From assembly GCA_036845785.1 (NCBI GenBank), contig DAIUDF010000001.1, positions 33,221 to 97,220 on the forward strand: 64,000 bases of DNA. The letters are read 5' to 3'. Within the stretch, counting starts at the first letter, position 1. Each line of letters starts with the position of its first letter. A model generated the notes under the pieces. It ran no database searches. It saw only the letters and a list, made by a program, of their open reading frames with translations, and was not told where the DNA came from. Positions 20,217 through 63,427 of this stretch are shown piece after piece. Source of the stretch: Candidatus Moraniibacteriota bacterium. GTDB lineage: Bacteria; Patescibacteriota; Minisyncoccia; Moranbacterales; GWC2-37-73. A program made the translations under genes and the position numbers.

Positions 20217-20407
20217 ATTGATTTTTTTCGCGGCCAAAGGTTTTTTACTTTGGCACCACGCGATTAATTAAGATAATTTAATTATAAAATTATTGCATCT
20301 GTTTACTATACACTAAATTCCTTTTTCAGGCAAATTTAAAAAATCCGTCTGTGGAAAATTCAATACATGACTCATTCTACACGACCTATAAAATCTGTCA
20401 ACCCCGC

Positions 20408-20473
20408 ACTAACTTTAGGCAAGTGTACAACACTGGATTGCTTTCAGCAAGCCTAAAGTTAGTGCGGGGTCAA
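20408..20473. repeat. hairpin element family E with 12-bp terminal inverted repeats CCCCGCACTAAC/GTTAGTGCGGGG, two copies (20408-20473 and 59746-59810)
   Basis: The arms are identical and the interiors unrelated. One copy sits at the tuf-side edge of the island. Confidence 0.7.
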
Positions 20474-29818: not shown

Positions 29819-29994
29819 AATTTTATAAAAACTAATTTTCCTTTAAATAAAGCAATTTTTCTTGATTTTTGAAAATTATCCACAGGGGCTTGAAATAATT
29901 ATAAGAATATGGTAGTATCTATACATAGACAAGTAAATTCCTTATGCGTGGGGTTCCGGATGGTTCCTCTTAAATAGCGCATAAGGTTTTGTTT

Positions 29995-30633
29995 TTATGG
30001 GAATAATGGACTTTCTTCAACGATTTTCTGCCTTATTAAATTATAATAGCTCTCATCTCCTAATTCTTTTTTCTTATATATCGCCCAGCAAATAAAATCA
30101 ACCGCCTGCAAGCACTTTTCAGCTTCAGGTGTTTTTATTTTTACACAAATATCAAGTTTATGATTATTCTTAACCTGATTTTCTAAATAATTTTTAAAAT
30201 TATCATTAAGAAATCTGTTTGTTTCACGCCTAGAAGCTATTAAAATTATTGGCGAATCTAGTGAAATAAGTTTTTTGGTGAATATTCTATCCAATAATAT
30301 ATTAGAAACATAATTATAAAGGACGTGTTTTTCATCTCTGAGTTTGGTATATACTTTCGCCTTATTTAGATGTATGGAAAGAACTGAAATATCTTTTTCA
30401 TTTAGCATTCCCAATGTTTTTATAATTGTCTTTGGTTTTTCTTTGCAAGCATGCAAAATTCCGACATGCTTTTTAAGCTCCTTCTTGCTTAAATTTCTAG
30501 CAACTTTTTTAATTACTTTTTCTACAGGACCTTTATTTTTAACAAATAAAAAAGTAACCACAAAAAATTTTGAAGATTTCTTGTTCGAATCAAATCCTAA
30601 GTCTCCACTTTCATCCAAAAATATATATGCCAT
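29995..30633 (-). CDS. DUF3800 family protein
   Basis: MAYIFLDESGDLG N-terminal signature. Confidence 0.65.
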   Translation of the reverse strand: MAYIFLDESGDLGFDSNKKSSKFFVVTFLFVKNKGPVEKVIKKVARNLSKKELKKHVGILHACKEKPKTIIKTLGMLNEKDISVLSIHLNKAKVYTKLRDEKHVLYNYVSNILLDRIFTKKLISLDSPIILIASRRETNRFLNDNFKNYLENQVKNNHKLDICVKIKTPEAEKCLQAVDFICWAIYKKKELGDESYYNLIRQKIVEESPLFP

Positions 30634-30750
30634 TTTTTATTTTCCCCAATCCACGTAAAACAATTTCATTATCACGTGGCTGTGCTTTAATTATTTTTTT
30701 GAATAATAATCCTTAATCATCAGCCCACCCCGGTTAAATACGATTTGAGC

Positions 30751-31809
30751 CTATTTTCTAAAAACATAGGCGGAGGCGGGACCTTTGCCTACTTGTTTTA
30801 TTGACCCGATTTTTTTGAGTTTTTGAAGATGCAACTGAGCTGTCCTCTTGGGACAATTCAGAATATCAACCACATCGTTCACGTTTATTTTTCCAAGCTT
30901 ATCCAAAAAATCCAAAATTTTCATCTGATCCTTGTCCAGATAGATTTGCGAATTAACATCCGCATCAATTTTCATGGCGGAAAGCGAGATTATTTTGTTT
31001 TTGACATTGTCAATTTCCTCTTTGAAACCTTTGGAGAAATATTCCAGCCATAAAGTGAAATCAGTTTTTCTTTCATCATAAGTCTTGCCTATATTGATAG
31101 CTTTATAATATCGTTGTCTATCTTTGTTGTAATAATCTTCCAAAGCAAAAAGTTTTCTGAAGTCATAGCCCCGCTTATAGAGAATAAGAGTGGCCAACGC
31201 CCTGGCTGTCCTGCCATTGCCATCATTGAATGGATGGATGGCAGCAATTTCCTGATGGGCTATGCCAGCCACAATGATCGGGCTAGTGTCTTTTTTCTTA
31301 CTATCTTCTATCCAAGAAATAAGATCAGCGCAAAGTTTCGGAACTTTCTTGGCATCCGGGCCTGTATACATAACCTCATTAGGAAAGCCTAAGCGCCTTC
31401 TGACGATATAGACCGGACCTTTTCTGTAGTGTCCTGACGATTCCTCATCCAATGTTTTGTCTGTAACTAATTTATGTATTTTAAGCAAAACTTTTTCGGT
31501 AATCGCCTGCTTTTTTTTGACGACTTGCTCGATATATTTCAAAGCATTGAGATAATTTTGCACTTCAAAAATTTCTCTCTGGGGAGCATCCACTTTTTTC
31601 CGGCCAACTAAAGCTTCAACTTCGTGCATATTGAGCTGGTTGCCTTCAATGGCAGTTGAGCTATGAGTCATCCTGATCAAAGCTTGCCGGCGCAATTTCA
31701 GCTCATTTTTAGGAAGAATCTTGGCTCGCTCAATAACTGCCTTGGCCTCAGCCACCGCAGTCAACATTTTTACAATATTGTCAGTAATTTTATATTTTGG
31801 ATTAAACAT
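30751..31809 (-). CDS. fic: Fic-family protein (AMPylator-type) with C-terminal wHTH
   Basis: HPFNDGNGRTARA matches the HxFx(D/E)GNGRxxR Fic motif. Confidence 0.85.
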   Translation of the reverse strand: MFNPKYKITDNIVKMLTAVAEAKAVIERAKILPKNELKLRRQALIRMTHSSTAIEGNQLNMHEVEALVGRKKVDAPQREIFEVQNYLNALKYIEQVVKKKQAITEKVLLKIHKLVTDKTLDEESSGHYRKGPVYIVRRRLGFPNEVMYTGPDAKKVPKLCADLISWIEDSKKKDTSPIIVAGIAHQEIAAIHPFNDGNGRTARALATLILYKRGYDFRKLFALEDYYNKDRQRYYKAINIGKTYDERKTDFTLWLEYFSKGFKEEIDNVKNKIISLSAMKIDADVNSQIYLDKDQMKILDFLDKLGKINVNDVVDILNCPKRTAQLHLQKLKKIGSIKQVGKGPASAYVFRK

Positions 31810-31910
31810 ATCGATATAGAAAGTATAGCATGTTTTTGATAATCACGCAATAATCGCGCAAAGAATCGCGCAAAGTTTTTTTCGCCCACTTTCGGAATTC
31901 TATATTTATT

Positions 31911-31985
31911 ATTTTTTTGAATAATAATCCTTAATCATCAGCCCGCCCCAGTTAAATATCGCTTCGCTATTTAACGGGGTAAACC
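31911..31985. repeat. palindromic element family G (ccccGTTAAATA...TATTTAACgggg). Copies at 30688-30750 (degenerate), 31911-31985, 32724-32800, 33260-33320, 42481-42540 and 48313-48362 (inside comEC)
   Basis: Three copies share the upstream TTTTTTGAATAATAATCCTTAATCATCAGCCCGCCCC block plus a 12-bp-stem hairpin. All six carry the GTTAAAT/ATTTAAC arms. Confidence 0.8.
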
Positions 31986-32165
31986 TTATCTTTTTTTCCA
32001 GTCCCTTATTACAAAACCGCCCTTAATTTTTTTAACGGTTATTTTTTGCCGCTCCTTCCACCCCAGTTCCCTAACAACTTCAATAGGCAGAGTTAAACCG
32101 ATTGAGTGTTTTCCAATTTTTGTTAATTTTCGCACATTTTTTTCGTTTGATTTTTTGTTTGCCAT
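31986..32165 (-). CDS. AbrB/MazE/SpoVT-type swapped-hairpin small DNA-binding protein (antitoxin-like), 59 aa
   Basis: Complement translates to MANKKSNEKNVRKLTKIGKHSIGLTLPIEVVRELGWKERQKITVKKIKGGFVIRDWKKR. It is absent from the ORF track, presumably because it is under 60 aa. Confidence 0.6.
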   Translation of the reverse strand: MANKKSNEKNVRKLTKIGKHSIGLTLPIEVVRELGWKERQKITVKKIKGGFVIRDWKKR

Positions 32166-32199
32166 ATTTTTTTGTTGCTACTTATAATTCTAATAAAAT

Positions 32200-32646
32200 T
32201 TATCGAACCTTTGCGAAAAGATAAACATCATAATATTTCCCGTTTTTGCAGACTTCTTTCCTTAATATTCCCTCCAACTTAAATTTATTCTTCTCCAAAA
32301 CTCTTGCCGATGCTTTATTCGGGAGATACACCTTTGCTGTAACTCTTTTTAATTTTAATTTGTCAAAACATAGCTTCACCAGCTCTCTTGTGACCTCGGT
32401 AATCAAACCTTTGCCCCAATGCTTTTTTGCCAGCCAGTAACCGATCTCCGCCTGATGCCCGTTTCTATGTATTCCGCAACTGCCAGCAACTTCACCTTCA
32501 ATTTCAATGGCAAGGTTTACCCTGTCCTTCCTTTTTAGGTTAAGTGCTTTTTTCAGAAAAATATTCGCTTCTTTGGATCCGTAAGGATACGGCACTACTG
32601 ACATATAGCGGCCAATGTCGGGATCATTTATATTTTTTATCAGCAC
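32200..32646 (-). CDS. GNAT N-acetyltransferase (RimJ/RimL-like)
   Basis: GIHRNGHQAEIGYWLAKKHWGKGL...ARVLEKNKFKLEG acetyl-CoA-binding region. Confidence 0.8.
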   Translation of the reverse strand: MLIKNINDPDIGRYMSVVPYPYGSKEANIFLKKALNLKRKDRVNLAIEIEGEVAGSCGIHRNGHQAEIGYWLAKKHWGKGLITEVTRELVKLCFDKLKLKRVTAKVYLPNKASARVLEKNKFKLEGILRKEVCKNGKYYDVYLFAKVR

Positions 32647-32783
32647 ATCCTTATCTGTTTTTTTGTAATTTCTGATTATAAACCGCTTGGTTTTGATCGG
32701 CTTGATTTTCGTATATTTATGTTAATTATTTTTTGAATAATAATCCTTAATCATCAGCCCGCCCCCGGTTAAATATCGCTTCG

Positions 32784-33224
32784 CTATTTAACAGGGTAAA
32801 TCTTCCTTACATTTTCTTTGTTTGGTTCTTCGTTTGGTTCTTTGTTTTCCTTACGTCTTCCCCTGGATTCAAGCTCTAGCACAACTGCTTCATAGTACGC
32901 AGGATGACTTTTTATTTTAGTTTCATCTGCAGCTATTATGATATCCATCAATTCTATACTTGATGCATCATGCACAAGAGCTCTGCGTTTTTGAACATTT
33001 TCAGAACTTATAGCACCTGGGCTTGAATGCCTCAAACTAATCAGGGTTTCAACTACCCATTCCTTATTTTCTAAGTATTTTTTACATTTTTCATCTAAAA
33101 AAGCTTTCTCTTCAGCTGAAAGTTTATATTTTTTATCACTCGTATTTCTTGTTTCTTCTTGATTAGCTTTTTTTATTTCTGCTTTTCGACCCGATGGAAC
33201 CGGGAATTGTATTAATTCTCCCAT
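32784..33224 (-). CDS. hypothetical protein (cassette)
   Basis: 146-aa ORF bounded by palindromic repeat copies. Confidence 0.4.
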   Translation of the reverse strand: MGELIQFPVPSGRKAEIKKANQEETRNTSDKKYKLSAEEKAFLDEKCKKYLENKEWVVETLISLRHSSPGAISSENVQKRRALVHDASSIELMDIIIAADETKIKSHPAYYEAVVLELESRGRRKENKEPNEEPNKENVRKIYPVK

Positions 33225-33349
33225 AATTTTATTTTATTAAATAATTTATTTTTTACTTTTAAAATCTCTCACTACCAACGCACCCCCAGTTAAATATCGC
33301 TTCACTATTTAACGGGGCAAGCGTACTTCAATTCTACGCCTAAAAATCC

Positions 33350-41817: not shown

Positions 41818-42480
41818 TCAAAACAAACGGCCGGAAGAATTTTCAAATACCATTTTCCGATAGACATCCCGCGTAGTCGCGACATCCCGCTGGCAATATT
41901 CGCAGATTTCTTTGTCTTTGCCTTTCCGATGAAACTCCGCCACTTGCGATCCGTCAATTCCGTCTTTGGGCGAAGGAATGCTAAGTGCCAAAGCCAGATA
42001 TTCCAATCCCACTCCGCTGTTTGCCCATTTCATCCACTCTTTCATTGTGTCGAAAATCGGATAATTCCTATACCTAGCAAAGCTGATTTCGTAGGCAGGT
42101 TTGACTCCTAAAATAATGGAACGCTGATAGATGAAGCGCAAATCGAAATCCATCACATTGTGACCCACGAAAAGCAAACCGTAGTCCGGATATTGTGGAT
42201 TGCGCGGCGTGATGCTGAGCGCCTGAACCAAATCCCAAAATTCTTGCAATGTTTTTTTCTCATTATTTTCATTGTAAAAAAATTGGACCGGATCGTCATC
42301 GACGGCATAGCCGATGCAAAGAATCTGGCCATAGGCTCCGTCAAAACTGGTCTTGGCCAAAAATTCATCGAATTTTTCCTGATCAAATTCATCATGCTTC
42401 TTGTCAAAAAGCATTTTCAAAGTTTCTGTCTTGCTTTCTTCGGCTGGCAAAGTTTCAATGTCTAAAAATAGTTTGTGCAT
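41818..42480 (-). CDS. DnaQ-like (DEDD) 3'-5' exonuclease
   Basis: FLDIETLP (Exo I), GHNVMDFDLRF (Exo II), YCQRDVATTRDVY (Exo III). Confidence 0.7.
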   Translation of the reverse strand: MHKLFLDIETLPAEESKTETLKMLFDKKHDEFDQEKFDEFLAKTSFDGAYGQILCIGYAVDDDPVQFFYNENNEKKTLQEFWDLVQALSITPRNPQYPDYGLLFVGHNVMDFDLRFIYQRSIILGVKPAYEISFARYRNYPIFDTMKEWMKWANSGVGLEYLALALSIPSPKDGIDGSQVAEFHRKGKDKEICEYCQRDVATTRDVYRKMVFENSSGRLF

Positions 42481-42609
42481 TTACCCTGTTAAATTCAACT
42501 CTGTTGAAATTTTGCTTTGGCAAAATTATTTAACAGGGTGAATTTTAAATTATATCTTATAATTACATTATAACACCAAACAAAAACCGCTTCTAGCTTG
42601 AAGTGGTTT

Positions 42610-46399: not shown

Positions 46400-47263
46400 T
46401 CAATTGGCAACCCGAGTGCATTTGTCATTTGGATTTTGACATTTATAAACGACATCCCCCATTTCATCGGTTCTTAAAATATTTACTTTATTTCTAAGCA
46501 GTCTGTCCAAAACTTCCTGATTGGGATGGCCATAGGAATTTTTACCCACAGAAATAACAGCGTCAGCCGGATTTGTTGCTGATAAAAAATCATCGCCGGT
46601 TGAATATTTGGAGCCATGATGGGCGACTTTGAGCACATCGGATTTTATATCCACTCTGGAATTTATAAGCTCTGTTTCTTTGGCGCTTGGCAAATCCCCG
46701 GTCAGAAGAAAAGAATTTTCGCCATAAACTAACTCAATAGCAACACTGTTGTCATTACTGGCTTCATCAACGGCTTCCGGAAGTGAAGTTAAAGGAAATA
46801 AAACATTCGCCACTGTTCCGCCGGGAAATTTAACTGTCGCATCTTTTTTGGCATCCACTTTTTCCAAACCTTTTTGGCTAATCACCTCTTTGAGTTTTTG
46901 ATAAACTTCCGAATCGCTTTCGGCATTGGTTTTCAGAATTTTTTCAACTCTATATGTTCCAAGAACATCAATGAGTCCCCCAATATGATCTTGATCGGGA
47001 TGGGTAGCGACAACAATTTCAATCTTCCGGTCCCAAAACGGAATATATTTTCCAAGCTCCTGCAAAAGCAATCCCCCGTCTTTCCCGCCATCAATCAACA
47101 TTTGATTTTGCCCTTCGGAAATCAAAATAGCGTCGCCCTGTCCGACATTCAGAAAATAGACGTTTAAATTATTTTTCCGAGCAGAAAAAACAATACTAAA
47201 AATAATTGCGGTTAATATTGCAAATAATATTAAGATTGAATAGATTAGTTTGCGATTTGTCAT
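46400..47263 (-). CDS. metallo-beta-lactamase fold protein corresponding to the ComEC C-terminal domain (separate ORF with its own TM)
   Basis: ATHPDQDHIGGL and VAHHGS motifs. Start at MTNRKLIY. Confidence 0.75.
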   Translation of the reverse strand: MTNRKLIYSILILFAILTAIIFSIVFSARKNNLNVYFLNVGQGDAILISEGQNQMLIDGGKDGGLLLQELGKYIPFWDRKIEIVVATHPDQDHIGGLIDVLGTYRVEKILKTNAESDSEVYQKLKEVISQKGLEKVDAKKDATVKFPGGTVANVLFPLTSLPEAVDEASNDNSVAIELVYGENSFLLTGDLPSAKETELINSRVDIKSDVLKVAHHGSKYSTGDDFLSATNPADAVISVGKNSYGHPNQEVLDRLLRNKVNILRTDEMGDVVYKCQNPNDKCTRVAN

Positions 47264-47334
47264 AAAAGTAAAATGACAAATGACGAATTCCCAATGACAA
47301 ATCAAATCCAAATGACTAAATGTCAAATTTGAGC

Positions 47335-48846
47335 TTAGGATTTTGACATTGATTTGTCATTAGTCATTGTAAATTTGACATTATGAAAATTTTTTATAAA
47401 TAACATAATTCCAAATAAAATTATATAATATAATGTTACCCACCATCCACTAAACTTTTCTATTTCGATGCTTGCCCAAGGAAAGCCAGCCAAAATATGC
47501 ACTGTTTTTATCACATAAGTCAGCGGCACGAAAGCCAGCCAGGCCAAAACCAACGACAAAGGCGGAAAAATAAGCCCGGCCAATGAAACCAGAAAAACCA
47601 AAAGCATAGCGAGCGGAACTATCGGCAAAATCAAAACATTGGCCAAAAGTGAAATCAGCGAGGCTATGTGGAAATTATACGCTATAATTGGCAGCACAAA
47701 AACCTGCGCACTGAGCGACAATGCAATTATCTCTGAAATTCCCAGTGCCTGGTTCTTTTTGATAAAACTTTTTTCCCAAATTGGTGAAATCAACACAATC
47801 CCCAGTGTAGCCAAAAAAGAAAGTTGGAATCCCACATCCCACCTAAGCAGCAATGGATTAATCAGTAGCATTACGGCACCCGCAAAAATTATGGCATTTT
47901 CGCTGTTAGCTAAGCGCCCATTTTTCATCGCCCAAAGTAAAAGCGTTCCCATAACTCCTGCCCGCACAGCTGAAGACGGCAGCCCAATCATAATTACGAA
48001 CAAAACTATGCCGAAAATCGCAAACCAAACCGCTCTTTTGCGCCAGAGTCCGATCCAGATTCCGATAAGAATTAAATATTCCGCAATGATTGTGACGTTA
48101 TAGCCCGAAACTGCCACGATGTGAGTCATGCCGGTTTTGGAAAAATCATTTTGGATTTCTTTAGGAAGTTGACTGCTCCCGCCGAATAAAATTCCGTCCG
48201 CCAAGGCTCTCTCCGGCTCGGGAACGACTTTGCGTACATTCTCTTGCAATAAATTTCTGACAAGAAAAATTTTATTTAAGAAAAAATTGCCTTTGTTTTC
48301 TCCAATCTTATTTACCCCGTTAAATTGCGAAGCACTTCGGCTTGCCGAAGATTTAACGGGGTCGCATTGATACAAAACTCCGTCTTTCGCCATATACATT
48401 TGATAGTTAAAATCAGCATTTTTATTTTCTATTGATTTTAAAGTGCACTCTACATTAAGCAAATCGCCATATTCATATTCCGGATATTTCGGAATTTGCA
48501 CCAGCAATTTTATTTTTTCCGCCGTTGTTTTTACGATTAAATTTTGTCCAAAAGCGTTGGGCGAACTCTTGAGTACCAATGCTTCGCCCCGGAAATTCTG
48601 TCCGTTCAATTTTAAATTTTGGCTTTCAACTATTCTGTTTTGTGTCAGCCACGCGCCAAAAACAAAAATTATAATCGTCAATGAAATTAAAAATATATTT
48701 TTGTTTTTATAAAAAACAGCTGCCATGATTATGTCAGCAACAATAAGCAGCCAATAAATCGTTTGATTTATTTCCCAAAATGACCGCACAAAAACTCCGG
48801 CGATAAATGCTAAAAGGATAACAAAAAAGACGCGTGATTTGCTCAT
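47335..48846 (-). CDS. comEC: ComEC/Rec2 competence channel (DUF4131 plus Competence domain), carrying an in-frame palindromic element insertion
   Basis: GMTHIVAVSGYNVTIIA...SAVRAGVMG Competence motifs. Polytopic membrane protein. Confidence 0.85.
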   Translation of the reverse strand: MSKSRVFFVILLAFIAGVFVRSFWEINQTIYWLLIVADIIMAAVFYKNKNIFLISLTIIIFVFGAWLTQNRIVESQNLKLNGQNFRGEALVLKSSPNAFGQNLIVKTTAEKIKLLVQIPKYPEYEYGDLLNVECTLKSIENKNADFNYQMYMAKDGVLYQCDPVKSSASRSASQFNGVNKIGENKGNFFLNKIFLVRNLLQENVRKVVPEPERALADGILFGGSSQLPKEIQNDFSKTGMTHIVAVSGYNVTIIAEYLILIGIWIGLWRKRAVWFAIFGIVLFVIMIGLPSSAVRAGVMGTLLLWAMKNGRLANSENAIIFAGAVMLLINPLLLRWDVGFQLSFLATLGIVLISPIWEKSFIKKNQALGISEIIALSLSAQVFVLPIIAYNFHIASLISLLANVLILPIVPLAMLLVFLVSLAGLIFPPLSLVLAWLAFVPLTYVIKTVHILAGFPWASIEIEKFSGWWVTLYYIILFGIMLFIKNFHNVKFTMTNDKSMSKS

Positions 48847-48996
48847 GCCCAGTAGTAGAAATTCAAATGGGCGTAGCCCAAAAAATATTTACTAAAACAA
48901 ATTACTGATTATAAAAATTTTTTATGCCTCAATAAAAATAGTGATGTTATATATTTTTGAATTTTCACTACTGGGCATGTATCTATTATAACAGAT

Positions 48997-50526: not shown

Positions 50527-52800
50527 TTATTTTTTCTTTTTGCTAGCGCCTACAGGTACGGGAACAAATGTTCTCCTGTCTTTGAATTCGGCTTGCTTAC
50601 CTTTGTTCCATTGTTCAACCGGTCGAATATAACCAACCACCCGTGAATATACTTCGGTTTTCTGCTCTACCACGCATTTCGGACAAACATGCTGTTCGCC
50701 TGCCAGATAGCCATGCACCGGACAAATGCTGAATGTCGGCGAAAGCGTGAAATATGGCAAAGCATAATTTTCGGCAATTTTCCTGACCAGATTCTTCACC
50801 ATATTTATATCCCAAATTCTTTCTCCTAAGAATCCGTGCAAAACTGTGCCACCCGTGTATTTGGTCTGCAAACTTTCCTGCAAATCCAAAGCTTCAAAAA
50901 TATCTTCAGTGAAATAGACCGGCAATTGGGAAGAATTCGTATAATATGGTTCAGCGCTTTCAATTTTAACAGCTTTATCATTGGCGAAAACAATGTTAGG
51001 ATATTTTATTTTATCCATGCGCGCCAAACGATAGGAAGTGCCTTCAGCCGGAGTGGCTTCCAGATTATACAGATTACCAGTTTCTTCCTGATAACTGACA
51101 ATCCTTTCGCGCATATGCACCAAAACTTCTTCCGCCAATTTCTGCCCTTCTTTAGTGGTTACATCTTTTCCAATTAAGTTCGTAAGCGCTTCATTCATGC
51201 CAACGAGCCCTATGGTAGAAAAATGGTTAGCCCAATATTGTCCACGCCGCATCTTGATCGCATCCAAATAAAACTTGGTATATGGATAAAGACCCTGCTC
51301 TGTGAGATTCTCAACTAACTTTCTTTTGGTTTCCAGGCTAGTTTTAGCCAGATCCATTAAGTTATCAAGTTTTTTAAAAAACTCCTGTTTGTTTTTTGAA
51401 ACAAATCCAAGTCTTGGCATGTTGATTGTGACTACTCCGACTGAACCAGTTAGCGGATTGGCACCGAAAAGTCCGCCGCCACGTTTGTGCAGTTCTCGGT
51501 TGTCCAATCTCAAACGGCAGCACATCGATCGCGCATCGTCCGGATCCATATCGGAGTTTACGAAATTCGCAAAATACGGAATACCATATTTAGCGGTCAT
51601 TTCCCAAATAGCATCAAACCTGCTGTCATTCCAATCGAAATTTTTGGCAATGTTATAGGTTGGAATCGGAAAAGTAAAAATTCGGCCGTTAGCGTCGCCT
51701 TCCGTCATAACTTCAGCAAAAGCCCGGTTAATCATATTCATTTCTTCTTGAAAATCAGCGTATGTTTCTTTTTGCGGAACTCCTCCGATAATAGCAGCTT
51801 CCTTGGCTAGCGTTTTTGGCGGCGTAATATCCAAAGTTATGTTAGAAAAAGGAGTTTGAAAACCGACTCGAGTCGAGACATTCATGTTAAAAACAAAAGA
51901 CTGAATCTCCTGCTTGACTTGGGCATATGACAGCTTGTCATGGCGCACAAAAGGAGCCAGCAGTGTGTCAAAGTTGGAAAAAGCTTGAGCGCCAGCGACT
52001 TCGCCCTGAAGAGTATAAATAAAATTTACCATTTGGCCCAAAATAGATCCGAGATGCTTGGCTGGCTTGCAGGCAACCTTGCCCGACACACCGGTAAAAC
52101 CGCGACGGATCAAATCTTGTAAATCCCAGCCACAGCAATAGGCTGCAATAAGTTGCAAATCATGAATATGAAAATCACCGCCTTCATGCGCCTCGCGGAT
52201 TTCCTTGGTATAAACCCGATTCATCCAATATTTAGAACTCACGATTGAAGCAATGTAGTTATTAAGTCCCTGCAAAGAATAGGCCATGTTGGCATTTTCC
52301 TTAACTTTCCAATCTATTTCCTGAATATATTTGTCCACCAAGCTTACGGCTTCATCCAAAGATTCTTCGGTTTCGCGAATTTTCCTGTGTTGTTCACGAT
52401 ACAGAATGTAGGCTTTGGCGGTTTCTTCAAAATCAAGCACCATCAAAACCCTTTCAATCACATCCTGGACTTGTTCCACGCTGGGGATTTCTCCTTTTTT
52501 GTAATTTTTATTCAAAAGCTGCAAAACTTTTTCGGTAACTTTTCCGGCATCTTTTACACTGCCTTCGCCTGTAGCCGCAAAAGCTTTGCTGATGGCGATT
52601 AATATTTTCTTTTTATCAAAAGGTGCAACATTGCCGCTGCGTTTTACTATTTTTCGAATTAGGTTCTTAATTTTTTTAGCCTTTGGCTTCTCTTCTTTCG
52701 TCTGCGCCTTCTTCTTGCTTATTACCTTCTTTACCCTATTAAATTGCTTCGCACCGACTTTGTCGGATTTAATAGGGTGAATGTTTTTTTGTTTTTTCAT
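50527..52800 (-). CDS. nrdD: anaerobic ribonucleoside-triphosphate reductase (class III)
   Basis: N-terminal ATP-cone, CxxC...CxxC C-terminal zinc site, and the glycyl radical motif RVVGYIRPV. Confidence 0.9.
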   Translation of the reverse strand: MKKQKNIHPIKSDKVGAKQFNRVKKVISKKKAQTKEEKPKAKKIKNLIRKIVKRSGNVAPFDKKKILIAISKAFAATGEGSVKDAGKVTEKVLQLLNKNYKKGEIPSVEQVQDVIERVLMVLDFEETAKAYILYREQHRKIRETEESLDEAVSLVDKYIQEIDWKVKENANMAYSLQGLNNYIASIVSSKYWMNRVYTKEIREAHEGGDFHIHDLQLIAAYCCGWDLQDLIRRGFTGVSGKVACKPAKHLGSILGQMVNFIYTLQGEVAGAQAFSNFDTLLAPFVRHDKLSYAQVKQEIQSFVFNMNVSTRVGFQTPFSNITLDITPPKTLAKEAAIIGGVPQKETYADFQEEMNMINRAFAEVMTEGDANGRIFTFPIPTYNIAKNFDWNDSRFDAIWEMTAKYGIPYFANFVNSDMDPDDARSMCCRLRLDNRELHKRGGGLFGANPLTGSVGVVTINMPRLGFVSKNKQEFFKKLDNLMDLAKTSLETKRKLVENLTEQGLYPYTKFYLDAIKMRRGQYWANHFSTIGLVGMNEALTNLIGKDVTTKEGQKLAEEVLVHMRERIVSYQEETGNLYNLEATPAEGTSYRLARMDKIKYPNIVFANDKAVKIESAEPYYTNSSQLPVYFTEDIFEALDLQESLQTKYTGGTVLHGFLGERIWDINMVKNLVRKIAENYALPYFTLSPTFSICPVHGYLAGEQHVCPKCVVEQKTEVYSRVVGYIRPVEQWNKGKQAEFKDRRTFVPVPVGASKKKK

Positions 52801-59489: not shown

Positions 59490-59887
59490 TTTTACCTCCA
59501 TTTAATTTGGCGTTTCCTGAACAGCACTTTTGCCTTTCTTTTTTACTGGTTTATTAAGCCTTCGATTTGCCCTTTCAGGTCTTACGGTTTTGGATTTAAT
59601 CAGTCGCGGTCTTGGTTCATTCTTTGACATATAAACCTCCTTAGGAATATTTTAGTTTATTTATAATATTAAGAACTTCTTATCCAACATTGTGTGATAA
59701 AGTATTTCATCATAACAAAACTAACTAAAAATGCAAACCCCGCACTAACTTTGCACAAGCGCGAAGCGCTAATCGGCAAAGCCAGTGCAAGGTTAGTGCG
59801 GGGCAAATACCCTTGTTACGTAGCATGTACGTAGCAAAAAAACACCCTGCACAAGCAGAGTGTTTTTCAAAATTTGTATAAGCTGTA

Positions 59888-63192: not shown

Positions 63193-63427
63193 ATAAGAGC
63201 AGACATAACAAATAAAAAGAAATTTAACAGGGCAGGGCCCGTAATTCTTCCTTTGTCAGATGGATAGCTTGCGAAAAAGGCGATTTGAAAAACCGCCGGA
63301 AAAAAATCAAATATTTCAGCAAAACATTTCCATTCCCCCTGCCCCCCACAGAGAAGAGATTTTTATTTCCTCAAAAGATTCTCAAGCAACGGATACTTAT
63401 GAAAAAAAATTCCAGCGGGGACGTTTG

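Follow-up and report, generated by a model that had tools for sequence, protein, structure and literature searches.

The comEC gene of an uncultured member of Candidatus Moraniibacteriota carries, in frame, a 49-nucleotide palindrome which, judged from sequence comparison, is a copy of a dispersed and horizontally spread palindromic element and an insertion in its host gene. It lies in the window, by which we mean the whole 64,000-nucleotide stretch of DNA that was analysed (GenBank assembly GCA_036845785.1, contig DAIUDF010000001.1, positions 33,221 to 97,220 of the forward strand) and whose numbering is used here. The termini of this family are evidently those of a miniature gene unit that encodes a GIY-YIG nuclease and is able to interrupt genes. 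The explanation that we favour, and consider moderately probable, is that the comEC segment is a miniature noncoding member of a mobile palindromic family in which the nuclease mobilizes its own unit and, acting in trans, the miniature copies as well. Protein homologs are referred to below by P-numbers and DNA loci fetched from other genomes by L-numbers.

The palindrome in comEC

On the plus strand the 49 bases from 48314 to 48362 read ACCCCGTTAAAT TGCGAAGCA CTTCGGCTTGCCGAAG ATTTAACGGGGT, and on the coding strand they correspond in frame to residues D162–V178 of ComEC, DPVKSSASRSASQFNGV. Sequence, open reading frame (ORF) and translation bear out a first-pass annotation that had placed a palindrome in frame within comEC at 48313–48362, coordinates that are off by at most one base. 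The copy is predicted to fold into a 12-bp outer stem enclosing two inner hairpins, with an energy of −18.2 kcal/mol using DNA parameters.

The 503-residue product of the host ORF has 2161 homologs, the closest named being ComEC/Rec2 of Candidatus Moranbacteria. Pfam assigns residues 219–484 to the Competence domain (2e-56) and gives a weak match to DUF4131, an oligonucleotide-binding (OB) fold, at residues 30–160. The metallo-beta-lactamase part of ComEC is a separate downstream ORF (46400..47326), and the same split is found in all close relatives. In an AlphaFold model of the protein (predicted local distance difference test score, pLDDT, 72.6; predicted template modelling score, pTM, 0.69) the insert is a loop between strands 157–163 and 178–182 at the end of the OB-fold domain, and residues 166–175, which belong to it, are the sole internal segment with a pLDDT below 50. 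According to this model the copy adds approximately 15 residues to a predicted disordered loop that follows the OB-fold domain.

The segment is an insertion that has moved between alleles

The first-pass annotation had proposed an alignment of ComEC orthologs as a check on its claim. We aligned 38 close orthologs of 52–92% identity and built a neighbor-joining tree of 121 sequences. Approximately 80% of the close orthologs lack the segment, including P0002 (80% identity) and P0005, which is near-identical to the carrier P0003, and this identifies the segment as an insertion. Most aligned orthologs read ...YQCDK(E/P)K-I(Q/E)KI... with nothing at its position, while at least 11 have a segment whose ends are shared, DP(V/I)KS...QFNGV, and whose middle varies. 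The carriers fall into approximately nine scattered clades of the tree, often with an empty sister (P0003 versus P0005; P0007 versus P0015). Among 80 more distant comEC loci from metagenomes, from relatives of at most 56% identity, none contained the element.

The filled locus L006 and the empty locus L004 are 93–100% identical in every 60-nt stretch of the gene except two. These two, alignment positions 481–600, cover the element and approximately 70 nt downstream of it; here L006 and L004 are 54–75% identical, and L006 is instead 90–95% identical to L001, which it matches at just 50–88% elsewhere. This mosaic indicates that the L006 lineage acquired the element from a foreign filled allele along with a short flank on one side, and hence that the element has moved between comEC alleles together with a co-converted flank. 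A separate insertion is found in L207 (encoding P0006), four codons downstream, with complete TTTACCCTG...TGGGTGAA ends and a flank of the empty type.

Within the window the pattern GTTAAAT-N(10–40)-ATTTAAC occurs five times against 0.06 expected from shuffles, and none of 100 shuffles reached five. The sites are at 31951, 32768 and 33289 (short forms in a cassette-like array), at 42488 (intergenic) and in comEC; a sixth copy, found apart from the exact pattern, lies in the ORF of nrdD, and brings the total to six full copies (Table 1). Were the segment native to ComEC and its likeness to other palindromes coincidental, the presence of a similar segment at the same position in at least 11 orthologs would be accounted for. 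We regard this reading as refuted: most close orthologs lack the segment and its carriers are scattered on the tree, near-identical alleles differ in its presence and show a co-converted flank, the same 24-nt termini recur in at least 120 unrelated loci, and the five window matches far exceed the 0.06 expected. Orthologs with the segment and no repeat elsewhere, the outcome that the first-pass annotation had named as fatal to its claim, were not what was found, since the window has six copies and other genomes contribute at least 120 loci.

Variation at the comEC site

Five lineages carry copies of equal length at the same comEC position. Their 6-bp inner stem varies (CTTCGG/CCGAAG, CCCCGAC/GTCGGGG, CCTTGG/CCAAGG and CCTCGC/GCGAGG) with pairing always kept: both partners have changed in four of the six pairs, and 100% of cells are paired. 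The outer arms have decayed in some lineages (CCCATTAAAT in L006 and L209, TCCGTCAAAT in L210), and the copies of L208 and L212 have internal deletions. The window and L001 encode proteins that are 92% identical and share approximately 100 nt of identical flank, yet they differ at 10 or more positions of the 25-nt interior; the nrdD copy, unlike the comEC copy, is identical in the two. The interior difference looks more like block replacement or hairpin-templated correction than like slow compensatory selection. Template switching within quasi-palindromes is an established mutational mechanism, and a correction of this kind may have acted on the comEC interior.

Other in-frame insertions occur elsewhere in ComEC orthologs: NLPAEEAR, NSPGGEAG, NPPARLDSAKRAGEAGN and RKRHSGLDPESLKILNPSTRRARQVQDDTEV (L212 3001–4521 and L209 3001–4509; alignment columns 80–115 and 208–290). 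The two clearest that were checked are palindromes or hairpins at the DNA level (CTTGCCTGCCGAAGAGGCAAG; GTCATTCCGGACTCGATCCGGAATC...), so that several palindromic families appear to colonize comEC in frame.

Two further repeats adjoin the gene. A 24-nt inverted repeat (92% complementary, arms 88 nt apart; CATGCCCAGTAGTAGAAATTCAAA...TTTGAATTTTCACTACTGGGCATG) lies at 48844–48979, directly upstream of the comEC start; it has a predicted fold of −26 kcal/mol with DNA parameters, and its sequence is unrelated to the GTTAAAT element. At 47272–47382, the junction between the N-terminal part of comEC and the ORF of its metallo-beta-lactamase domain, an imperfect 48-nt inverted repeat made up of heptamers like AATGACA covers both the stop of the first ORF and the start of the second, and is translated as ...FTMTNDKSMSKS followed by the stop and as MTFSHLDLICHWEFVICHF... 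respectively. Orthologs have C-termini related to this reading (MTNYKSNPKS). The repeat represents another family at a gene boundary.

A family dispersed across phyla

Searching one genome per species for exact matches to ACCCYGTTAAAT-N(8–38)-ATTTAACRGGGT gave at least 120 loci with exact 24-nt termini. Among the loci listed most are from many classes of Patescibacteria (Moran-, Nealson-, Nomura-, Kaiser-, Doudna-, Kuenen- and Saccharibacteria and others), and the remainder include Omnitrophota, Bacteroidota, Cloacimonadota, Calditrichaceae, Spirochaetales and Desulfobacterota/Thermodesulfobacteriota. Some "binchicken" labels (Gammaproteobacteria, Saccharibacteria) may be unreliable. Mis-binning cannot explain all of the loci from outside the candidate phyla radiation (CPR), because contigs on the Mb scale (Desulfatiglandales, 4.1 and 6.5 Mb; a "Deltaproteobacteria" contig of 5.2 Mb) and a single-cell genome are among them.

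The terminal inverted repeat (TIR) is 12–15 bp long, (TTY)ACCCYGTTAAAT...ATTTAACRGGGT(RAA), and beyond TTY/RAA nothing is conserved. Core lengths range from 32 to 62 nt with peaks at 37, 46, 55 and 58, and just over half of the cores (52%) are 1 mod 3. Two hairpins are formed by 89 of 126 distinct interiors and one by 26, with a mean z of −4.3 relative to shuffles and loops typically of 3–4 nt (GAA, AAA, TTC, TTT), and a single strand of the element would be predicted to form a three-way junction. A TGC-NNN-GCA module like that of the comEC mini-hairpin is also found in a "46-nt subfamily" (the nrdD copy, L035, L074, L087, L094 and L120). Copies from the same genome can have common interiors, as do L021, L026 and L043 of the metagenome-assembled genome (MAG) JAHJSK01, in keeping with recent amplification. 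Some copies are in tandem or nested (L083, L049, L123, L200), the tandem junctions reading ATTTAACGGGGT-TC-ACCCCGTTAAAT, a 10-6-10 palindrome.

As to which strand might be functional, the flanks form the pair TTT..GAA in 29 cases, its reverse complement TTC..AAA in 22 and a symmetric pair in 17. Across subfamilies the orientation of the interior did not track flank asymmetry, and T-G and C-A each occur three times at the Y/R position. Enrichment relative to start or stop codons was not convincing against a crude control. A scan of the whole window with Rfam 15 at the gathering score returned one tRNA only, and two copies searched at E <= 10 gave a chance miRNA match far below threshold. In the literature covered, which leaves out most subscription journals, we found no description of the element, its literal termini included, or of TIR-flanked UPF0213 genes.

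Copies in frame inside ordinary genes

Of 130 sampled copies 19 (approximately 15%) are located in open frames that extend at least 40 codons to either side, and 16 of the 18 host ORFs scanned with Pfam are ordinary genes. These comprise a GatA-type amidase, KsgA, a cysteine desulfurase, phosphoglycerate kinase, DNA polymerase I, RecG, FtsZ and ribosomal protein L18, together with three family-1 glycosyltransferases, an O-antigen-ligase-like protein, PMT_2, a DsbD-like protein, MotA/ExbB and an S-adenosylmethionine methyltransferase. The insert can lie within a domain, with the Pfam match running on both sides of it (Amidase, PGK, KsgA, L18, Aminotran_5). It is common for members of the family to persist in frame in essential genes.

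Nearly all in-ORF copies read x-P-V-K-S...F-N-(G/R)-V, and 17 of the 19 have a core that is 1 mod 3. One frame of each arm contains TAA; in the right arm a second frame, L-T-G, runs into TRA where the element ends, which leaves F-N-G/R-V as the sole open frame. To combine P-V-K on the left with F-N-G/R-V on the right the core length must be 1 mod 3, a length that also keeps the frame of the host if the net insert is the core plus 2 nt. As far as can be judged from these copies, one persists in a gene only if its core is 1 mod 3, it is read in the xPVKS...FN(G/R)V frame and the loop is tolerant of it, and in length, frame and loop alike the comEC copy conforms.

The first-pass annotation had compared the comEC palindrome with Rickettsia palindromic elements (RPEs), which are approximately 150 bp long, form ten families and lie in ORFs in nearly half of all cases (PMC10969869, summarising Ogata et al. 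2000). The likeness holds for behaviour: both are multi-copy palindromic selfish DNA of which a sizeable fraction lies in frame in unrelated housekeeping genes, as the 19 in-frame copies and 16 Pfam-assigned hosts illustrate here, and both are translated as a conserved peptide at positions tolerated by the fold. It fails for size and lineage since, comparing by description only, RPEs of approximately 150 bp are confined to Rickettsia and its relatives whereas the present element is 32–62 bp, roughly a threefold difference in length, and occurs in several phyla. The enzyme that mobilizes RPEs is also not known, while here there is a candidate, a GIY-YIG nuclease with the same termini. The element behaves like an RPE but is not one.

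A GIY-YIG nuclease unit with the same termini

The termini of the family flank units of approximately 300 bp that encode a stand-alone GIY-YIG nuclease of 84–86 residues, of the prokaryotic Slx1/UPF0213 type. In L095 (5193–5513) the unit consists of ttcACCCTGTTAAAT, 25 nt, and an ORF MNMYYTYILQSEKDKKFYTGYTKNLKLRFKQH...RLKSYLTG that closes with TAT TTA ACA GGG TAA, its final codons being the right terminus ATTTAACAGGGT plus the stop. In general the last four codons of the nuclease (Y-L-T-G) and its stop are the right terminus plus the adjoining base or two. In units from Moranbacteria (L213–L219) GCCCTGTTAAAT precedes the ATG by 25 nt and the end reads ...TCTTATTTAACAGGGTGA; those of a Desulfobacteraceae lineage (L225–L234) read ctatTTACCCTGTTAAAT...ATG...TATTTAACAGGGTGAatgagg. 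A further GIY-YIG gene, 55% identical, is bounded in L086 by another inverted repeat similar in style, TCCCGTTAG...CTAACGGGATGA, and in L069 a mini copy abuts the 5' end of yet another.

The unit is itself an insertion, as the Desulfobacteraceae unit splits a PDDEXK_3 gene (...ELKSCSELLPI / NEAQLLTYLKLTNIKVGLLINFN...). The nuclease ORF of L095 is in turn interrupted by a 35-nt mini copy, in silico excision of which restores ...LIYY-E-VCLNQ... as in its homologs. Mini copies and GIY-YIG units can be found in the same MAG, as in CAZBOB01, a MAG of the Desulfobacteraceae lineage (L067 and L231), and in the L095 genome; Moranbacteria RIFOXYA12_FULL_35_19 contains the mini copy L046 and, by its protein name in the source, the nuclease P0184.

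The L095 protein has 3892 relatives. The best 120 all contain PF01541, have 83–99 residues, are 77–93% identical and come from many CPR classes, with the identity range reaching a Desulfobacteraceae-labelled MAG. The end SYLTG is present in 106 of these 120, and two members with over-called N-termini begin ...FTLLNN and FTQLNS, a translation of the left terminus. Among solved structures, those of the UPF0213 proteins 1zg2 (E = 8e-4) and 1ywl (4e-3) come nearest, which with PF01541 places the protein among the stand-alone Slx1-like GIY-YIG nucleases. The branch of 1zg2 and 1ywl is that of minimal prokaryotic Slx1-like GIY-YIG proteins, and the 2006 survey that classified it left open whether its members act as "molecular parasites" (PMC1564403).

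Searches for further units were largely negative. Among the fetched loci a search for long TIR pairs found a coding unit in L095 only; a 1.6-kb pair in L008 (5476–7087) is without a long ORF, and pairs of 100–150 nt have AT-rich, geneless interiors. Viral contigs scanned for TIR-(255–285 nt)-TIR gave five chance matches and no GIY-YIG gene, and tblastn of the nuclease against plasmid and phage collections gave no match.

How the element may move

If the favoured explanation is correct, the nuclease would mobilize its own unit and, in trans, the mini copies, which would be its non-autonomous relatives. Spread from allele to allele would proceed by break-and-repair or by recombination that copies the element and a short flank, and may amount to homing driven by the nuclease and not to plain recombination that follows DNA uptake. 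The three-way junction predicted for the single strand is a plausible substrate for the nuclease, a lead suggested by analogy, because eukaryotic Slx1 is a structure-specific nuclease (PMC1564403).

Spread to new sites would leave no clear target duplication. A flanking direct repeat is absent in 103 of 127 copies and in the remainder is 1–2 nt only. Two of three comparisons of filled and empty sites, those of the L095 GIY-YIG gene and of PDDEXK_3, fit a net insert of core plus 2 nt without duplication and are compatible with a TAT^GAA target, with junctions that parse in more than one way. The third, an AbrB-like gene in L213 versus L218, gave no single solution. This small AbrB/SpoVT-like gene, which lies directly downstream of the Moranbacteria GIY-YIG unit, is intact in L218 (...TIPIEMYKELGWKEKQK...) and is split in L213 (approximately 1820–1870) by a degenerate mini copy (GCCCTATTAAAT...ATTTAACAGGGTGA) that shifts the frame of the gene instead of preserving it.

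Several points weigh against mobilization by the nuclease. Neither a consistent target-site duplication nor a target motif could be defined from the copies and the filled/empty comparisons, and the comEC junction (TGCG/ACCCC...GGGGT/AAAT) is without the usual TTY flank. TIR-flanked units are documented at the DNA level from three lineages and in one case with a variant TIR (L086), the rest being inferred from protein ends. The interiors of the mini copies and of the GIY-YIG unit have only AATTTT beside the left arm in common; the two-hairpin interior is no obvious deletion remnant, and the nuclease gene could instead have invaded a palindrome. To our knowledge an 85-residue GIY-YIG domain has no transposase activity. 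Pfam found no GIY-YIG gene, transposase or recombinase among approximately 50 ORFs of the 64-kb window, though an integrase could lie beyond it. The allele mosaic, finally, would also arise by ordinary recombination after DNA uptake, without a nuclease.

Alternatively, the palindrome may be selected by its hosts as a structured DNA or mRNA element (a protein-binding hairpin, a signal for mRNA stability or translation pausing, or a recombination hotspot) and spread by homologous recombination, with the GIY-YIG gene as a passenger or as a homing gene that targets palindromes. Interiors are indeed far more structured than shuffles, and at the comEC site two-sided changes keep the inner hairpins even where the outer stem decays; the outer stem of L210 has three one-sided changes, each of which results in a T-G pair on the coding strand, and several copies end 2–12 nt before a start codon. 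On the other hand, no Rfam match was found at the gathering score or at permissive E-values, and copies are found in either orientation and in every context, without strong positional enrichment. The 10 or more differences between the window and L001 in a 25-nt interior beside approximately 100 nt of identical flank also speak against it, and a beneficial motif would not be expected to split a PDDEXK_3 or a GIY-YIG gene. We consider selection as a host motif unlikely.

Comparison with known systems

[quoted passage not shown] They too are small, noncoding and multi-copy, are bounded by TIRs and have a longer gene-carrying relative with the same ends. As an element with a 12–15 bp TIR at 120 or more loci the present family answers to this description. 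The longer unit with the same TIRs exists as well, its product being a GIY-YIG nuclease with a putative role as transposase; it is a minimal nuclease and not a DDE or other recognized transposase. The present element further differs in that no target-site duplication is detectable and its interior is constrained to hairpins.

Repetitive extragenic palindromic (REP) sequences and REPINs form the second parallel. Genes for REP-associated tyrosine transposases (RAYTs) are flanked by REP repeats, as described in PMC3116915 and PMC3333891. In both systems dispersed hairpin repeats match the repeats that flank a small nuclease gene, which implies mobilization in trans. It could accordingly be supposed that the present element is of REP/REPIN type and is moved, as single-stranded hairpins, by an HUH Y1 transposase (RAYT or the TnpA of IS200/IS605), and the richness in hairpins, the lack of a target duplication and the small repeat-flanked nuclease gene would all fit. 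We judge this to be most improbable: the hairpin foot has no GTAG or CGTC tag (the termini are ACCCYG), the gene between the repeats encodes a PF01541 GIY-YIG protein and not a Y1 transposase, and REPs are extragenic whereas 15% of the present copies are intragenic. REPIN-RAYT systems are also mostly inherited vertically, in contrast to the horizontal transfer across phyla and common intragenic copies seen here.

Free-standing GIY-YIG homing genes (T4 Seg and the relatives of I-TevI) resemble the unit in being selfish GIY-YIG genes and in spreading between alleles with a short one-sided co-conversion tract, as in comEC, although ordinary recombination gives the same pattern. They encode enzymes of 200 or more residues with DNA-binding domains and one cognate site, whereas here an 85-residue catalytic core is bounded by inverted repeats and is associated with hundreds of different sites.

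Other features of the window

The features located in the window are listed in Table 1.

Table 1. The comEC palindrome, its parts and related features in the window (junctions between element and flank are marked by a slash).
Feature	Position	Strand	Details
Element core in comEC	48314..48362	-	12-nt arms ACCCCGTTAAAT / ATTTAACGGGGT around 25 nt; coding-strand reading (D)PVKSSASRSASQFNGV
Left TIR ACCCCGTTAAAT	48314..48325		Same 12-mer (ACCCYGTTAAAT) in at least 120 loci of other genomes
Mini-hairpin TGCGAAGCA (GC-GAA-GC)	48326..48334		Coding-strand reading TGCTTCGCA
Inner hairpin CTTCGG-CTTG-CCGAAG, 6-bp stem	48335..48350		Sequence and folding
Right TIR ATTTAACGGGGT	48351..48362		Also last codons (Y-L-T-G) of 84-residue GIY-YIG genes, L095, L213–L219, L225–L234
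Intergenic copy ACCCTGTTAAAT...ATTTAACAGGGT, two inner hairpins	42483..42539		Canonical flanks TTT/ACCCTG...CAGGGT/GAA
Copy in nrdD ORF	52733..52778	-	5' end of nrdD ORF 50527..52800 (-), reading HPIKSDKVGAKQFNRV
Short 35-nt variant CCCCAGTTAAAT-ATCGCTTCGCT-ATTTAACGGGGT	31946..31980		Within ~90-bp repeat between minus-strand array genes
Second short 35-nt variant in array	32763..32797		Pattern match
Third short 35-nt variant, array edge	33284..33318		Pattern match; left flank different
Orphan left half-site (CCCCGGTTAAAT)	30728..30739		Preceded by same 45-nt array repeat
Orphan right half-site ATTTAACAGGGC, intergenic	63222..63233		Sequence match
comEC N-terminal part, 503 residues (OB-fold/DUF4131 and Competence membrane domain)	47335..48846	-	Pfam

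The second copy that the first-pass annotation had placed between genes, at 42481–42540, is indeed intergenic and ends 2 nt from the ATG of an RNase-H-like exonuclease gene (41818..42480, minus strand). The nrdD copy has a matching G:C to A:T change on both arms (CCTATTAAAT / ATTTAATAGG), also present in the 92%-related contig L001. It lies in frame within an N-terminal extension of the predicted anaerobic ribonucleotide reductase ORF (MKKQKNIHPIKSDKVGAKQFNRVKK...), the ATG start of which is putative. In related Moranbacteria contigs (L004/L005 8629–8666; L212 915–1196) nrdD is called as two genes of approximately 712 and 86 residues, both PF13597, for which a further insertion or a frameshift towards the 3' end could be responsible.

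The cassette-like array occupies 29900–33320 on the minus strand and contains genes for DUF3800, Fic/DOC, a small ORF, a GNAT acetyltransferase and a 146-residue ORF without assignment. They are parted by a repeat of approximately 90 bp, made up of a conserved 45-nt block followed by the 35-nt short palindrome variant. An EcoRI-type methylase, a GmrSD/HNH nuclease and an HD protein lie beside the array, and the region looks like a defence/toxin island inserted beside fusA. The annotation had linked the comEC palindrome to this array; the 35-nt variant with the same arms sustains the link only as sequence kinship.

The array raises the question of whether the arms could be sites of a tyrosine recombinase, attC-like or Xer/dif-like, and the 30–33 kb array an integron-type structure. 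In integrons R' has the consensus GTTRRRY and R'' the consensus RYYYAAC, and GTTAAAT is the outer end of the E. coli XerD arm. The order of boxes in attC is 5'-R''(RYYYAAC)-L''...L'-R'(GTTRRRY)-3', with AAC and GTT proximal to the variable centre, and a Xer/dif site has 28 bp (two 11-bp arms and a 6-bp centre) and occurs once per replicon. GTTAAAT does fit GTTRRRY and ATTTAAC fits RYYYAAC, and the element shares with attC imperfect palindromes, 7-nt boxes, a variable structured centre and a position between promoterless array genes. Tandem junctions form a 10-6-10 palindrome, the short variants of the window separate Fic, GNAT and unassigned genes, and the Desulfobacteraceae GIY-YIG unit lies among toxin-antitoxin genes, as is typical of cassette arrays. 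Yet the box order is inverted relative to attC, with GTT and AAC distal to the loop, the window yielded neither an integrase nor a Xer-like gene, isolated copies within genes cannot be cassette boundaries, and the 12-mer continues as ACCCY/RGGGT, unlike the inner dif arm. We therefore consider recombinase sites very unlikely as an account of the element, while the array and toxin-antitoxin contexts keep this account alive for the array itself.

As class assignments for the element, both kinds of recombinase site were rejected. Box order, copy number and the lack of a recombinase in the window speak against both. A Xer/dif site was also set aside as only the outer 7–8 nt resemble the XerD arm and genomes have many copies in place of one 28-bp site per replicon.

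A second palindrome family is present at 20401–20470 and 59738–59803, in both cases intergenic, with similar ends and different arms (ACCCCGCACTAACTTT...AAAGTTAGTGCGGGGT, 19–20 nt, 95–100% complementary). In other genomes the GTTAAAT element directly abuts this second type (L059, ...CAGGGTgaACCCCGCACTTAC; L117). This second type could represent a sister family that possibly has a GIY-YIG variant of its own, as the gene bounded by TCCCGTTAG/CTAACGGGA in L086 may exemplify. Approximately 70 of the 80 or so long ORFs of the window are on the minus strand, which fits a strong co-orientation with replication; this bias could confound tests of orientation with respect to transcription versus replication.

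Implications

We tentatively put forward, as a real possibility, that these sequences represent an undescribed class of bacterial mobile element, in which an autonomous form of approximately 300 bp, bounded by inverted repeats, encodes a bare 85-residue Slx1-type nuclease and has hairpin derivatives of 32–62 bp. If so, the autonomous form would be among the smallest conceivable, with its stop codon at the end of the element, and a nuclease superfamily not so far known to drive bacterial DNA transposition would be added to those that do. Horizontal spread would have carried the hairpin derivatives through Patescibacteria, Omnitrophota, Bacteroidota and Desulfobacterota, where they would routinely stay in frame within essential genes and so give proteins such as FtsZ, PolA, PGK, L18 and ComEC a PVKS...FNGV loop. 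The match of the termini supplies a concrete candidate for the mobilizing enzyme, which is lacking for RPEs and for many bacterial MITEs.

Selfish palindromes that are translated in frame have been treated as a peculiarity of Rickettsia, and are now found in the streamlined genomes of the CPR and in several other anaerobic phyla, essential genes included. This bears on how proteins acquire loops and on how assembly breaks are read in these lineages, and for annotation it means that such elements may be the origin of N-terminal extensions, split genes and "hypothetical" low-complexity segments. The comEC mosaic shows that the elements travel by recombination between strains of uncultured bacteria, and gene flow could be tracked by whether they are present or absent.

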